Origin: Patescibacteria group bacterium
Lineage (GTDB): Bacteria; Patescibacteriota; Minisyncoccia; Phycocordibacterales; UBA2100
NCBI GenBank assembly: GCA_024654485.1
Contig: JANLHO010000004.1
Coordinates: 1 to 39,118, forward strand
DNA length: 39,118 nucleotides
Reading direction: 5' to 3'
Positions 9,709-39,118 of the stretch are shown in pieces. A program made the translations under genes and the position numbers. The notes below the pieces were generated by a model. The model was not told the origin of the DNA. It ran no database searches and saw only the letters and a list, made by a program, of their open reading frames with translations. Within the stretch, counting starts at the first letter, position 1. The number at the start of each line of letters is the position of its first letter.

Positions 9709-10401
9709 CTAACGGAACCATGCTAGTTTTGATCGAGAAACCTCAACAATCGATTTCTCGCTCAAATCGTAGAGTACGATTTTTCCCGTAGAGGCATCAT
9801 AGAGCATATTATGCGGCCCCATGTCTTCGAACGTGGAAAGTGCTGCCTCTATCTTCCTTGCTTTTGAGTCCAACTCTACATACTCGGGATGCTCTTGGGT
9901 TCCATGATTTTCTTCTATTTGCTCTAGGCGCTTAGATACGGTCGGCAGATTTATCCACCTGCTGACAAAATAACTCCTTCCTGTACCTTGATATCCGAGC
10001 AACGGCTCTACTACATCAACCCCTGGGACGTCCTCCAGAAGGTCTTTAGCCCTTAGCGTACTCGCGTATTCGTCAGTACCCTTTGCAGTTACACCAGACA
10101 GGACTCTATCTTTCTCTATCTTGACTAAAAACGAGGAGTCGTTCGTTGATACTTTGAGAACGTGACGCCTATGATTTTCACCAGAACGCCATCCTTTTAT
10201 CAGATTAATTGTGCCGGACTCTGATATAAATGACGGATGCTCTGCCAATTGTTGCCATGTCATTGAATCCAGCTGCTTCAGTACATCTTTCAGTGCTCTC
10301 ACTGTTTCCGGATTAGCCTTCAACCAAGCCCTAAAGTCCTCGTTGTATACCAAGCTTCGTGTATCCGTACTCTTTATCCGCTCAATCATAGAATCCGTCA
10401 C
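9709..10401 (-). CDS. Small protein-kinase-like-fold protein (RIO/Kdo/APH-like), function unknown
   Basis: Visibly AT-richer than its flanks. FLVKIEK (beta3-Lys-like), EDMGPHNMLYD (D-x4-N catalytic loop) and KIVLYDLSE (DFG-equivalent Asp). The track start is GTG; an ATG at 10389 with AAGGTGA 8 nt upstream is an alternative start. Confidence 0.6.
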   Translation of the reverse strand: MTDSMIERIKSTDTRSLVYNEDFRAWLKANPETVRALKDVLKQLDSMTWQQLAEHPSFISESGTINLIKGWRSGENHRRHVLKVSTNDSSFLVKIEKDRVLSGVTAKGTDEYASTLRAKDLLEDVPGVDVVEPLLGYQGTGRSYFVSRWINLPTVSKRLEQIEENHGTQEHPEYVELDSKARKIEAALSTFEDMGPHNMLYDASTGKIVLYDLSEKSIVEVSRSKLAWFR

Positions 10402-32239: not shown

Positions 32240-33208
32240 TTAGCCACCTACTATGCGTATTTTGTGAAAATTCTTGCCGGAGAGTCCTTCAAGTGAAATC
32301 GGCTCCTCCTCGCAGAGCGTTTTTTCCAATTGCGAAGGCGAGAGGATTGTCTCAATTAATGAGTCCTCTCTTTTTAGCAGTGCCCCTACCCCCACCCAAT
32401 AGCGTACGATGGAAGTTTTGGTCGTACCGACCGCGATGAAGTTGTCCAGATTGAGTGGAGTTGAGAAAACGCCGACGGTATCTGGTTCGCACAGGTATTT
32501 GTTGGTCAGGTGTATGTACGCATCGTGTATGAGCGCATTCTTCTCTCTCCAGAGCGGATCGTCCGTCTGCCCAGGCTTTATTCTCACGTTGAGTTCCATC
32601 TTCCGTAGCTTCGCCTCCGTGAGCTTGGGGTAGCCGCCCTCGTACTCCGCCTGGTCGCGCTTTATTTGTTCGGCCAGCTGCGCCTCAAAATCCCCATCCT
32701 CGTAGTGAGAGCGCATCGGCGTAAGAGAGTAAGTGAGATTTTCCGGCGCATACGGCCGCAGGAACGCAAAAAGCGCGCTGAATACTTCCGCGTATTTATC
32801 CGTATCATTTGCTGGGATGTTGTTGAGTCGCTCCACAATGACCTCGTCGGAGGAAAAGTTCAGATGCACCCCCGGCTTGTGCATAGCGGCCACGGGATTG
32901 AGCCAGCGCGTGAGATACATAAGTGTGAAAAGTTCCGCCCAATCAGGCTCGGGAGCTTCCTCAAAGCGCCAGAGTTTGTACGCGCCGAAGGGCCAGAGGA
33001 ATTTGATGGGCGTCCCCGCGCGCACGTGGCGCTCTATCACGCTACGCATGCGTTTTTGGTGCGACTCGGGTGTCGCGTACTTCCTAAATTTCTTGGACAT
33101 GAGCGCTTTCATGATGGCATCGGTGCGCTCTTCGGCGGCGGGGAGCGGAGCATTCTCCAGAGCGCGCAGCTGTGACAAACGCTCTTCAATGAAAGCCTTA
33201 GGTGTCAT
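32240..33208 (-). CDS. 322-aa protein of unknown function (only a faint motif-level resemblance to DIT1/PvcA-type enzymes, unverified)
   Basis: Start placed at MTPKAFIEERL (ATG 33208-33206), because the 11 upstream codons of the track ORF lie inside the tRNA. Globular with no TM or signal. Confidence 0.65.
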   Translation of the reverse strand: MTPKAFIEERLSQLRALENAPLPAAEERTDAIMKALMSKKFRKYATPESHQKRMRSVIERHVRAGTPIKFLWPFGAYKLWRFEEAPEPDWAELFTLMYLTRWLNPVAAMHKPGVHLNFSSDEVIVERLNNIPANDTDKYAEVFSALFAFLRPYAPENLTYSLTPMRSHYEDGDFEAQLAEQIKRDQAEYEGGYPKLTEAKLRKMELNVRIKPGQTDDPLWREKNALIHDAYIHLTNKYLCEPDTVGVFSTPLNLDNFIAVGTTKTSIVRYWVGVGALLKREDSLIETILSPSQLEKTLCEEEPISLEGLSGKNFHKIRIVGG

Positions 33209-33281
33209 GGAGATGCGGGCAGGAATCGAACCTGCGTACACTGCTTTGCAGACAGCGGCCTGACCACTCGGCTACCGCATC
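33208..33281 (-). tRNA. tRNA-Cys (anticodon GCA), CCA encoded
   Basis: Minus strand reads GATGCGG-TA-GCCGAGTGGTCAGGC-C-GCTGT-CTGCAAA-GCAGT-GTAC-GCAGG-TTCGATT-CCTGC-CCGCATC-T-CCA. 7-bp acceptor stem, T-loop TTCGATT, U33, anticodon GCA, A37, and discriminator U73, a known tRNA-Cys identity element. Confidence 0.93.
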
Positions 33282-35832: not shown

Positions 35833-36084
35833 TCAATCCGAGTGACCAAGCCGTATCAATCCCAGCTTCTTTTGTCGCGGCCAGCTTTTGATATCGGCTT
35901 CTCTTTTTAGTGCCGACGACCTGTCGGGACGCCCCTCCGAATACACGATGCGCTTGGCGATATGCGACCTTGTATAGTTGCCGCCCTCTCCCTTTTTGTG
36001 CTGCTCAAATCGGCGCTCCAAGTCATTGGTCACGCCGGTGTAGAGAGACCCGTCGCCGCATTGCAGTATGTAAACAAAATACAT
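35833..36084 (-). CDS. GIY-YIG nuclease-family protein (short, UPF0213/YhbQ-like)
   Basis: MYFVYILQCGDGSLYTGVTNDLERRFEQHK...Y.....R..VYSE.......A.KRE..IK. Confidence 0.85.
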   Translation of the reverse strand: MYFVYILQCGDGSLYTGVTNDLERRFEQHKKGEGGNYTRSHIAKRIVYSEGRPDRSSALKREADIKSWPRQKKLGLIRLGHSD

Positions 36085-36242
36085 ATGTCCATACTACCCC
36101 ACACGCCCGACCACGGGGAAGGCCGAAAAAGGTTCCCGACACCTTTTATTCTTGAGGAAAAGCGAGAGTTGATGCAATCGTTTAAGAGCAAACTCATCTT
36201 GCTCAATAAACGACTGATTCATGAGTAAAAAGGTTGTTCGCG

Positions 36243-37952
36243 TTATGTAAGTAAGGCTTGAAGAGCTTTTCTGTTTTTTGGACTAAATGAGTACCCATTT
36301 TTCTCAACTTCTTTCCAAAAGACTTCCTTAACTTCGTCATGGTTTCTCAAAAAAACAATCGCCTCTTGCTGGTTCGTAATCCTTTTCCGACGCGCACCGC
36401 TTACAATGCCAGAGAAATAGGAAGGCGTGCTAGATTTCAGGCTAAAATCCGCCTTCCATATTTGATGAACACAATTCCTTAGATGACCATCATATTCCGC
36501 AAATAAGTCTTCCACTGCCTGTCCAGCTGGGAGAACTATGAGAAACACTTTAGGAATATCCTTAACCTCCAACTTCTTAAATCCACTTCGTTCTGCTCCT
36601 TCTCCAGCGTCTTCTGTATGACGCTTTATAGAGTCCAAGCCACCGTCGCCATCTACAATAAAGTACGCAGCAGACCCGAGAATTTGTGGAGCTGCTTTTA
36701 ATAAATCGAGGTATCTGCCGACATCTGCTATTCCTTCCAAGCCCTTCGTTACATCAATCCCCACTTTTCTAAAAGCCTCAACGGTCAGATCTTTTTGATC
36801 TTCGATGAAGATGAGCCGATCACTTTTTGCAATTGTAAAATACGCGCCGAAGTTGACATCGCCCATGAGTTTTCCGACTTCAGAGACTTTCTGATCCGAT
36901 GCCTCCGTTACTAGGAGTGAAGATAACCGTTCTTCAGAAAGAATGTTCCACCTGACCCTTTCGCCGCCGCGTCTACTTGCAGCAAGCAGCGCAGGCGAGT
37001 GTGTAGAGACAACCATTTGCATATTGCTGAGCCAGGTCTCTGAGTTAATTTCCCCAGCAAGTTTAAGAAGAAGGTCCATATGCAGAAAAGACTCCGGTTC
37101 TTCCATCAGCCAAAGAGGGTGGTATTCACCCCGGTGCAGAGATCGATCGCTATCGAGAAGAAAGTGGGCAAGGTATAGAACTGTAGATTGTGCGCCCGTA
37201 CCTTGCGCCGTAAGTTCTATTTCGGGAGCTCCTTTATACCCTTGGAAGCTAATATCTGATACGTCAATAATTTGTTTTATGTTCCGGGGCAGATCTATCA
37301 TCACTCTCGAGCCGGGCCAAAATGCTTGGAGCGAATCGCTAATTGAGCGTGATAGATATTCGTTTGCAGATTTACGCATTTCATCCCATCGCTGTTCGAG
37401 ATCCTTTATTGCATGCGTAAGAGCTGCACCACGTCCCCAGTTTGCTAATAGACGTTGGCGAAGTTTCTTCTGCACATTGGCGAGCAACAACTTTCCCTCT
37501 TGCGGGTGTATGTAGGTCACTTCTACAGCACTTAGAAGCCAGACCACATCTTCCGGCAAATCGTCACTTTCCTTCCCGCCACCAATTATCCAGCTCGCGC
37601 CTACGGCATCCGAAATTGGTGTGTAGGTTAAAATTTTAGTAACGGTTAGCTCGTGCCCGAATTTTTTTAAAAGTCTTGTTTTCCTTGTCTTGGTGCTTAA
37701 AGCTTCCAAGTCAAAGGTTAAGCGGATTTCACTCCTGTTATAACCCTTTTTCTTAGCAAGAAACTCCGTCTTGTTGAGGAAGGAGCTATCAGAGTAGTAG
37801 TCATCGGTAAAGAATGCCTTAAGACTGTGGAAAATGTTTGTCTTACCGGCGTTGTTAACGCCGATGAGGTATGTCGCTTGGGACATGTCCACTTGTGTCA
37901 CTCCGCGAAAGCTACGGAAGTTCTTGATCTTTAACTCCTTTATCAAATTCAT
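36243..37952 (-). CDS. OLD-family nuclease: N-terminal ABC/AAA_15-type ATPase fused to a C-terminal Toprim-like domain
   Basis: IKNFRSFRG..., Walker A GVNNAGKTN, signature-like LTAQGTGAQS, Walker B/D-loop LWLMEEPESFLH and H-loop VVSTHSP. The C-terminus has LIFIEDQKD (Toprim Glu) and YFIVDGDGG (DxD). Clearly AT-richer than the rest of the window, by eye. Confidence 0.8.
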   Translation of the reverse strand: MNLIKELKIKNFRSFRGVTQVDMSQATYLIGVNNAGKTNIFHSLKAFFTDDYYSDSSFLNKTEFLAKKKGYNRSEIRLTFDLEALSTKTRKTRLLKKFGHELTVTKILTYTPISDAVGASWIIGGGKESDDLPEDVVWLLSAVEVTYIHPQEGKLLLANVQKKLRQRLLANWGRGAALTHAIKDLEQRWDEMRKSANEYLSRSISDSLQAFWPGSRVMIDLPRNIKQIIDVSDISFQGYKGAPEIELTAQGTGAQSTVLYLAHFLLDSDRSLHRGEYHPLWLMEEPESFLHMDLLLKLAGEINSETWLSNMQMVVSTHSPALLAASRRGGERVRWNILSEERLSSLLVTEASDQKVSEVGKLMGDVNFGAYFTIAKSDRLIFIEDQKDLTVEAFRKVGIDVTKGLEGIADVGRYLDLLKAAPQILGSAAYFIVDGDGGLDSIKRHTEDAGEGAERSGFKKLEVKDIPKVFLIVLPAGQAVEDLFAEYDGHLRNCVHQIWKADFSLKSSTPSYFSGIVSGARRKRITNQQEAIVFLRNHDEVKEVFWKEVEKNGYSFSPKNRKALQALLT

Positions 37953-37961
37953 AGGGTAGTT

Positions 37962-38009
37962 GGAGTATACTCAAAATACTCCCGCTTGACCCGTCTAGGT
38001 CACTAGACG
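37962..38009. promoter_or_regulatory. Two inverted repeats upstream of the OLD gene (candidate operators)
   Basis: GGAGTAT-n7-ATACTCC (37962-37982, includes a TATACT -10-like box on the minus strand) and the perfect CGTCTAG-gtca-CTAGACG (37992-38009). Confidence 0.5.
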
Positions 38010-38059
38010 TGGTGTCCAAGATGAGATATTTGTGATGATGTATAAATAATTCTTCATAT

Positions 38060-38340
38060 TTACCTCAAAAGTCTATCTACCGACACGTCGAGCGCATCTG
38101 CGATGCGCTTAATGGTCGAAAGTGTCGGGTTTTTCTTGTTGAGTTCCGGGCCATGATGTGGCCTAACTGTACCAAGTTTCCGCGCATTGCGAAATCGCCG
38201 TAGGGTGGCGCGGGGTGGGCTCTGATACCCAACACGGCCGGGGTGTGTTGCGTAGCATTCTACGTAACAACGGAGTCCCCCTGTTGCCGCTCGTCCTTTT
38301 CCAGTACCTTTTTGATCTGTTCGAAAAGCGTATATTTCAT
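38060..38340 (-). pseudogene. XRE-family HTH regulator gene interrupted by a ~92-nt GC-rich insert
   Basis: N-terminal piece MKYTLFEQIKKVLEKDERQQ (ATG 38340) runs into a TAG at 38262-38260. The C-terminal piece NARKLGTVRPHHGPELNKKNPTLSTIKRIADALDVSVDRLLR* (38188-38060) is in another frame and has no start codon. Joined, the two pieces have the length and pattern of a ~62-aa XRE HTH domain. Confidence 0.65.
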
Positions 38341-38361
38341 GCTTCTAGATACTCACACAAA

Positions 38362-38916
38362 TCAGGAGTTTGAGGAATCGGTTGGTTTTGGTGCCAGTTT
38401 GGCATCGATTTTGGCCTTGACGGCGTCCCGCCCCATTTCTGATGTCTTTATGTGGCAAAGCGGCAGATCGGATGATTCGGAAATATAGTCAATGAATGCG
38501 TCCCGCGCTTGCCTATCGGGTCGTTCGTGGCTGCTTCCGTCGAGCTCAATGACGAGTTGCGCCTGTACGCGCTCTTTGTCGCAGAGGACGAAGTCAGCGG
38601 ACTTCCTATCGATTTTGTTTCGCAGCACAAATTGATCTTTGTATGAAAGCCCCCTGTGCGGAACGAGCAAATGGCTGTAGTGGACCTGCGGGAAGATATA
38701 GAAACGGTCTACGTATAGTTCCCGCAATGTATTGAACAGTTCACGTTCGGTCTTCGCATCAAACAAATCCTGTTTCCTGTCATAGGCGAGCGGTCGCTCG
38801 CCGCCCGATGACAACCAGCGCCAGATCAGCGCCGCCGCCACAACGACAAGCAGCACGGCGAGGAGTACGTACAGCCCGATGAACGGATGCAGAGCAGCCC
38901 CCAGATCAAACATCAC
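38362..38916 (-). CDS. Membrane-anchored DUF2726-like protein (restriction-endonuclease-like fold)
   Basis: N-terminal TM (FIGLYVLLAVLLVVVAAALIW). ERELFNTL......IFPQV....LL.......RNKIDRKSADFVLCD......LVIELDGSSH......RDAFID fits the DUF2726 pattern with a D...E-x-D / PD-(D/E)xK-like core. Confidence 0.7.
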   Translation of the reverse strand: MMFDLGAALHPFIGLYVLLAVLLVVVAAALIWRWLSSGGERPLAYDRKQDLFDAKTERELFNTLRELYVDRFYIFPQVHYSHLLVPHRGLSYKDQFVLRNKIDRKSADFVLCDKERVQAQLVIELDGSSHERPDRQARDAFIDYISESSDLPLCHIKTSEMGRDAVKAKIDAKLAPKPTDSSNS

Positions 38917-38986
38917 AAAATAATCCCACAGATCTTCATTTTGCTCTAGTCCTGCCGTAGATTTACTGCATCCATCCGTAGCCTTG

Positions 38987-39118
38987 CCGTGCCCTCCGAA
39001 GCTTCCATCGGAGGACGGGGCGAAGGAGAAGCGAAGCAGGGGAAATCGGTTGAGGTGGCCTGCCTGCCGTAAGCAGGGCGCAGGACGCCGGAAAGCGGCT
39101 CAACCGTACGGTTGAGCC
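38987..39118. other. GC-rich, highly structured segment truncated by the window end (possible ncRNA, attenuator or repeat element)
   Basis: Bulged hairpin CCGT-gc-CCTCCGA-n8-TCGGAGG-ACGG (38987-39018). CGGTTGAG (39047-39054) can pair with CTCAACCG (39099-39106), which alternatively pairs within the perfect 22-bp palindrome GGCTCAACCGTACGGTTGAGCC (39097-39118). Confidence 0.4.

Follow-up and report, generated by a model that had tools for sequence, protein, structure and literature searches.

The last 3.3 kb of a 39,118-nt Patescibacteria contig, JANLHO010000004.1 (the whole of which is called the window here), hold a gene at 36243-37952 (-) whose 569-residue product is a new, divergent stand-alone nuclease of the OLD family, one of a small clade of proteins of about 570 amino acids (aa), and belongs to Class 1 of that family by genetic context. 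We consider it probable that this enzyme is encoded on an AT-rich cassette of a single gene, and that the genes on either side of it, for a DUF2726 protein and a GIY-YIG protein, are bystanders. The gene has probably moved horizontally into the Patescibacteria genome, and its distribution across phyla is patchy. By analogy, its product would most likely act alone as an anti-phage or anti-mobile-element effector. Stand-alone OLD enzymes are, to our knowledge, the least understood class of a widespread family of anti-phage enzymes, with phenotypes described only for P2 Old, Vibrio cholerae OLD (Vc OLD) and, recently, YbjD.

The genes studied all lie on the minus strand, and the features of the segment are as follows:

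35833-36084, minus strand: GIY-YIG protein, 83 aa, neighbour (PF01541, E = 3.3e-17)
36243-37952, minus strand: stand-alone OLD-family protein, 569 aa, with an ABC (ATP-binding cassette) ATPase and a Toprim-like C-terminal region (open reading frame, ORF; AAA_15, E = 2.8e-23)
36246-36902, minus strand: its C-terminal region, residues 351-569, with a Toprim-like core (about 380-485) and a helical bundle (487-569) (domain model, motifs)
36903-37952, minus strand: its ATPase domain, formed by residues 1-350 and including a helical insert, about 153-231 (motifs, model)
37963-37972, no strand: perfect 10-bp palindrome GAGTATACTC (inverted-repeat search)
38060-38340, minus strand: degraded XRE-type helix-turn-helix gene (three-frame translations)
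38362-38916, minus strand: DUF2726 protein, 184 aa, membrane-anchored, neighbour (PF10881, E = 1.1e-24)

The ATPase domain and the C-terminal region

The protein matches AAA_15 and AAA_21 in Pfam and is identical (100%) to an NCBI entry labelled 'AAA family ATPase'. We read its motif conservation from an alignment of 28 homologues (39–57% identity), throughout which the Walker A motif G31-x-N-N-x-G-K37 (G31, N33, N34, G36 and K37), the Q-loop Q151, the signature Q250-G-T-G-A-Q255, the Walker B/D-loop E284-E285-P286-E287 and the H-loop H318 are invariant. All ABC-type ATPase motifs are present, just as an earlier note on this DNA had read them, and the fold matches of this protein include OLD, SMC and Rad50 heads. 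In the model, long helices (153-170, 176-209 and 225-231) of lower predicted local distance difference test score (pLDDT 54–77) stand between the Q-loop and the signature; this insert is presumed to be the dimerisation domain.

The best PADLOC models are Old, AriA and many of GajA, and among the matches listed the best stretches all fall inside the ATPase domain, with the AriA, Old and GajA matches covering residues 4-82. The NCBIfam model retron_eff_Eco8 gives a weak match, at 49 bits against a family cut-off of 250. An AlphaFold model of the full-length protein (pLDDT 84.6) has as its best folds in the PDB GajA (8u7i_A, E = 5e-19), the OLD enzyme of Thermus scotoductus (Ts OLD; 6P74, E = 7e-13) and the Eco8 effector. 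The full-length alignments to these OLD folds span about 490–740 columns at E = 5e-19 to 1e-11. Alignment of the full-length family with P2 Old by hhalign (probability 96%, E = 2.5e-9) reaches the C-terminal region, but the ATPase domain carries the score and the match is not independent evidence for that region. With E. coli YbjD, hhalign of the full family aligned the P-loop region only (probability 45%).

The C-terminal region has its own set of residues invariant across the 28 homologues: E384-D385, G407, D434-x-D436, P475, E481 and K542, the last of these placed in the C-terminal helical bundle. Modelled in isolation (pLDDT 91.9), the domain forms a four-strand alpha/beta core in which each group of acidic residues follows a strand, with strand 380-383 leading to E384-D385, strand 429-433 to D434-x-D436, and strand 469-473 to P475 and on to E481. 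This strand-helix order, with E, DxD and E at the strand ends, is in the models that of a Toprim domain. The best PDB folds of the isolated domain all contain Toprim domains, namely the reverse transcriptase (RT)-Toprim protein of retron Eco2 (E = 5.8e-4), DnaG (E = 0.02) and T7 primase, with GajA at rank 37 (E = 0.7). The spacing of E384, D434-D436 and E481 also parallels that of E377, D431-D433 and E480 in Ts OLD (PMC7049728). Taking fold, topology and invariant acidic residues together, we consider it probable that the C-terminal domain is a Toprim domain.

By profile search, the domain is isolated in sequence: its profile retrieved 65 clusters from 1.84 billion cluster representatives, all of them the same family or its fragments. 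Since the domain has no Pfam profile match, the label 'Toprim' rests on fold and motifs. The ATPase-Toprim fusion described in the earlier note keeps its acidic residues, E384, D434 and D436 being invariant, whereas no Toprim profile match emerged at E ≤ 10.

A more distantly related sister family of stand-alone ATPase proteins of 557–653 aa was also observed, at loci L033-L049 (Pseudomonas, Arthrobacter, Devosia, Methylobacter and others). In tblastn, the longest of their matches to the query extend as far as residues 484-513. These proteins carry the canonical motifs NVFVEGKSD, VLDGDDAG and FALEGLFP (VEGxxD, DGDxAG and EGLFP), in register with LIFIEDxxD, FIVDxDKG and AVEDLF of the query family. 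Pfam detects no Toprim domain in the sister family L033-L049 either, and no conserved neighbour was found there.

Composition, distribution and gene neighbourhood

The earlier note had described the segment from about 36.1 to 38.4 kb as an AT-rich accessory island. GC content in 1-kb windows at 36–38 kb is 0.452–0.465, the lowest of the contig, against about 0.55 for the window; the AT-rich segment is therefore real, but narrower than described, comprising the ATPase gene and its two adjoining, likewise AT-rich spacers. The ATPase gene has a GC content of 0.449 and a third-position GC content (GC3) of 0.442, where the mean GC3 of the window is 0.645. Its GC is the lowest of all genes in the window (z = -3.6 relative to 38 other ORFs), and no other gene of the segment is AT-rich. 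The DUF2726 gene (GC 0.537, GC3 0.632) and the GIY-YIG gene (GC 0.528, GC3 0.631) are host-like. Because low GC is confined to the ATPase gene and the spacers, the 'island' reduces to one foreign gene and a dead regulator between native genes.

The other genes of the window are of housekeeping type and include those for enolase, a phosphoglycerate-mutase-type phosphatase, a phosphoribosyltransferase, MscS and a DEAD-box RNA helicase. A search of 33.0–39.1 kb against Rfam gave a tRNA-Cys as its sole match. We rejected a tRNA-adjacent island: the tRNA-Cys is 3 kb away, and because native genes lie between it and the ATPase gene, it is no border of the AT-rich gene. Direct repeats or att-like sites were sought on both sides of the ATPase gene, and only short repeats at chance level came to light; scans for promoters and terminators found sites no more numerous than in shuffled sequence.

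A search of 5.8 billion proteins recovered 202 full-length relatives of the ATPase protein. The 120 matches listed are about 557–617 aa long and cover 96–100% of the query at 39–57% identity. A genome scan, using one genome per species, located family members at 32 loci, whose hosts include Patescibacteria, Verrucomicrobia (Akkermansia among them), Bacteroidota and Planctomycetes, as well as Bdellovibrionales, a spirochaete, Vogesella and one archaeon. At each of the 24 loci tested (among L001-L031), the GC content of the OLD-like gene is below that of the surrounding DNA, by 3.5–27 GC points, in hosts ranging from 36% to 72% GC. Such AT-richness throughout the family marks either a cassette that moves as a single gene or a strong constraint on composition. 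In four of the 32 genome loci (L018, L022, L028 and L032) two or three ORFs stand in place of one intact gene, which points to frequent decay or to assembly errors.

We judged synteny by adjacency, in flanks of up to 8 kb on each side of the ATPase gene. The earlier note had put forward a new pairing of an OLD enzyme with DUF2726, to be checked by synteny, and this check was negative. None of the 32 loci has a DUF2726 ORF within about 8 kb of the ATPase homologue, and a hidden Markov model of the ATPase family found no member beside any DUF2726 homologue in 57 loci (317 kb in total; 6 contexts from exact look-ups and 51 from a metagenome scan). All-against-all clustering of neighbours gave no cluster present in more than four of 33 ATPase loci. 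Among the 109 genes within two positions of the ATPase gene, no Pfam family occurs more than three times: ResIII, the only helicase family to recur, is found in three, followed by transposases, methylases and MmeI. A UvrD-type helicase, a reverse transcriptase or an AriB-type partner is seen neither in the window nor among the recurrent neighbours of the 32 loci, so that the absence of known OLD partners (GajB, reverse transcriptase, split AriA/AriB), remarked on in the earlier note for the window, extends to the whole family. An XRE-type regulator as a conserved partner was likewise rejected: no helix-turn-helix family is among those common to at least two of the 109 neighbours (ORFs of at least 70 aa).

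Some loci have defence-type neighbours. The closest homologue (57% identity in the 28-homologue alignment) lies 17 bp after a Type ISP restriction-modification (R-M) gene encoding 1,032 aa (L058:79-3177 (+)). At L013, L014, L017 and L027 the OLD-like gene stands among recurrent clusters of about 340, 225–413, 504–622 and about 1,050 aa; judged by size, without individual Pfam checks, these clusters of a few Verrucomicrobia and Deltaproteobacteria loci suggest type I R-M subunits.

Among the loci examined, the ATPase gene has no conserved neighbouring partner. A Class 1 OLD is a single gene without a partner (PMC10568477), and the gene is therefore assigned to Class 1 by genetic context. The alternative that the earlier note had itself allowed for, a Class 1 OLD that happens to lie beside an unrelated gene, is supported by the lack of synteny, the differing composition of the two genes and the pseudogene in the gap between them.

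Alternative readings and neighbouring genes

In the reading that we prefer, an AT-rich single-gene cassette, probably accompanied by an XRE-type regulator that has since decayed, would have been inserted between native genes. By analogy with P2 Old, Ts OLD and Vc OLD, the ATPase heads would form a dimer, and their binding and hydrolysis of ATP would gate a Toprim site with two metals, predicted to comprise E384, D434 and D436 together with D385 and E481, and possibly K542. The enzyme is predicted to nick or cut invader DNA, or host tRNA.

Several observations weigh against this reading. With regard to the nuclease, the fold matches of the isolated C-terminal domain are weak (template modelling scores of 0.26–0.39, with one alone at E < 0.001), and the first motif is E-D instead of the usual E-G-x-x-D. 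Neither Pfam, applied to the C-terminal 215 residues, nor a comparison of the domain profile with PDB sequences gave any match at E ≤ 10, and a Foldseek search of the C-terminal model against BFVD gave nothing under E = 0.04. Aligned alone with P2 Old by hhalign, the domain scores a probability of 0.4%, and its profile aligns with that of the sister family in the correct motif register at a probability of just 17%. With regard to mobility, tblastn against 50,697 phage records gave no family match, a tblastn search of plasmids found no family member and one distant ATPase-only match, and a scan of IMG/VR found no family member and three distant ATPase-only relatives. With regard to defence, an archaeal OLD-family ATPase with a role in the cell cycle is known (PMC12796447), so the OLD architecture is no guarantee of defence; and a close homologue (P0006) lies between pilus and ribosomal-protein genes, which, together with the housekeeping surroundings in this window, indicates that a defence-island context is not general. 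Finally, the contig stops 202 bp past the DUF2726 gene, hiding genes further upstream.

A possible reading, to which we give only tentative credence, is that the family of about 570 aa forms a distinct, unclassified clade of OLD-like proteins, a 'solo GajA-like' single-gene defence. Its distinguishing traits would be the sequence-isolated nuclease region, the E-D first motif, the Class-2-style helical bundle with an invariant lysine and the lack of a helicase partner, and the one-gene cassette might have spread across bacterial phyla, into an archaeon and into reduced Patescibacteria genomes.

We regard as unlikely a non-defence role, in which an OLD-like ATPase would serve a housekeeping or non-nucleolytic function and its C-terminal domain would bind without cutting, as proposed for the archaeal Cran1 class. 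The archaeal ATPase cited above is a precedent for this, and it is consistent both with the lack of a Toprim match at the sequence level and with the housekeeping surroundings of several loci, this window included. However, the gene is scattered patchily over distant phyla, with one archaeon among its hosts, its GC content is below that of its flanks wherever this was tested, copies are split at four loci, R-M genes adjoin it at several, and the whole family amounts to only the 65 or so clusters described above. Taken together, these properties fit a mobile gene of the accessory genome better than one with a core function, and the four invariant acidic residues also speak against a non-nucleolytic role.

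A fused system of the PARIS type is, in our view, improbable. In such a system the AriA ATPase would be fused to a Toprim resembling AriB; the protein would detect anti-restriction proteins of phages and respond by releasing a Toprim that cleaves tRNA. The PADLOC model of AriA is indeed second-best (E = 3.9e-23), single-gene AriAB fusions have been reported (PMC10568477), and the C-terminal domain is nearer to the Eco2 RT-Toprim than to GajA. Yet the AriA match is limited to the same N-terminal stretch as those of Old and GajA, the C-terminal domain matches neither DUF4435 (E ≤ 10) nor any other Pfam family, the 50 best fold matches of each model include no structure described as PARIS or AriB, and the C-terminal region has some 200 aa, compared with about 35 kDa for AriB (PMC11464382).

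That the OLD-type ATPase-nuclease and the membrane-anchored DUF2726 nuclease constitute a new two-gene defence module is very improbable: the genes share a strand, both proteins have nuclease folds with intact catalytic residues, and one DUF2726 homologue (L050) has defence-type surroundings (Mrr, a type III-like methylase/helicase and a GIY-YIG protein), but the lack of conserved synteny, the different composition of the two genes (GC3 host-like in one and foreign in the other) and a 409-bp gap that holds a frameshifted regulator leave the module unsupported. In addition, the nearest relatives of either gene are flanked by different genes, and the DUF2726 protein has no PADLOC match.

The DUF2726 gene is a native, solitary gene that is not tied to the ATPase gene. 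The earlier note was right to call its product a membrane-anchored DUF2726 protein encoded on the same strand, the PF10881 match scoring 87 bits against a gathering cut-off of 24.7, with a weak match to DUF559 as well; 'immediately upstream' does not describe a gene 409 bp away. The protein has a 19-residue hydrophobic window at residues 13-31 (Kyte-Doolittle 3.07), and all 22 aligned DUF2726 sequences have such an N-terminal segment, with basic residues almost solely after it. Because these residues are C-terminal to the helix, the positive-inside rule predicts a membrane-tethered nuclease domain on the cytoplasmic side. E57, Q77, K105, D108, E124, D126, H130, R138 and D139 are invariant in the same 22 sequences. 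The subfamily has no conserved neighbour in 36 loci, and it occurs mainly on metagenome contigs and in metagenome-assembled genomes (MAGs), some of which are labelled Patescibacteria or Parcubacteria. DUF2726 belongs to the Vsr/DUF559/DUF2726 group of PD-(D/E)xK proteins, which have a restriction-endonuclease fold and have undergone multiple horizontal transfers (PMC3424549); our protein shares PF10881 with this group and differs from it in its conserved N-terminal membrane anchor and its solitary gene.

Between the DUF2726 and ATPase genes lies the broken XRE-type regulator that the earlier note had recognized. Its three-frame translations require at least two frameshifts, and the last (frame-3) fragment, ending in NPTLSTIKRIADALDVSVDRLLR, matches positions 30-55 of HTH_3, the C-terminal half (E = 2e-4). 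The remnant is likely to be a former regulator of the cassette. The palindrome GAGTATACTC is located 11-20 nt upstream of the ATPase start codon, and a hairpin, GTCTAG-TGAC-CTAGAC, at about 38003-38018 lies between the XRE remnant and the ATPase gene, upstream of the palindrome. The palindrome and the hairpin could be an operator and a terminator, and we may speculate from the sequence that the decayed XRE gene and the palindrome once formed a repressor-operator control.

The short GIY-YIG gene downstream, also correctly named before, has a counterpart adjoining the ATPase gene in one other locus only, in a Planctomycetales MAG (L010). There a GIY-YIG gene of 95 aa (L010:7526-7813 (+)) shares the strand of the OLD-like gene and stands 148 bp upstream of it, with a GC content of 0.316 against 0.318 for the OLD-like gene and 0.463 for the flanks. 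Two such adjacencies in 33 loci exceed expectation. The adjacency is probably a coincidence, the GIY-YIG gene of the window looking native.

Elsewhere in the window, a second AT-rich gene, possibly also of foreign origin, lies at 9709-10401 (-); this 230-aa ORF has a GC content of 0.455 and a GC3 of 0.459, and it matches no Pfam family. The tRNA-Cys gene, at 33208-33281 (-), is overlapped by a mechanically called 333-aa ORF at 32240-33241 (-) that has no Pfam match; given this overlap, the true start of the ORF must be downstream of the tRNA.

Patescibacteria genomes are small, and the gene described here adds one more candidate defence gene to them. If the clade moves as a single gene between distant hosts, it would be a convenient test case for learning what triggers an OLD enzyme that has no partner, and for the substrate of its Toprim domain. 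The negative result has a use as well, in that the pairing with DUF2726 can be struck from the candidate defence systems.

Comparison with known OLD systems

The protein shares traits with each of the partnered OLD classes. It resembles PARIS (AriA/AriB, Class 4) in combining an AAA_15/21-type ATPase with what is probably a Toprim-type nuclease, and differs in that the two parts are fused and the C-terminal domain is shorter. Its likeness to retron effectors lies in the presence of Eco8 among the full-length fold matches and of the Eco2 RT-Toprim at the top of those of the C-terminal domain; unlike Eco8 (Class 3, retron type I-B), it lacks a reverse transcriptase gene in its surroundings, where the tRNA-Cys is the only structured RNA. 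Among the full-length fold matches, GajA of Gabija (Class 2) ranks first, and it too has a C-terminal helical domain, but no UvrD-like GajB is encoded in the window or at the 32 loci, the sole nearby helicase being the DEAD-box RNA helicase 1.5 kb away, and no GajA-type Toprim profile matches.

Among the characterised Class 1 enzymes, Vc OLD introduces nicks into DNA and stops the replication of phages (PMC12392090), P2 Old is activated through ATP hydrolysis and then cleaves the anticodon stems of tRNA (PMC12445682), and Ts OLD degrades DNA via two-metal catalysis (PMC7049728). Ts OLD uses R487 and lacks a C-terminal helical domain, the domain that in Class 2 supplies a catalytic lysine (PMC7049728); our protein has no basic residue at the R487 position and has the invariant K542 in its helical bundle instead. 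None of the collections searched has its gene on a phage or prophage, the sequence similarity detected is confined to the ATPase domain, and the first Toprim motif is E-D. In overall plan it corresponds to the Class 1 enzymes P2 Old, Ts OLD (6P74) and Vc OLD, which combine an ABC ATPase, a helical insert and a C-terminal Toprim-type domain, the last two of these being predicted from models in our protein, and its 569 aa fall within their size range of 528–586 aa.

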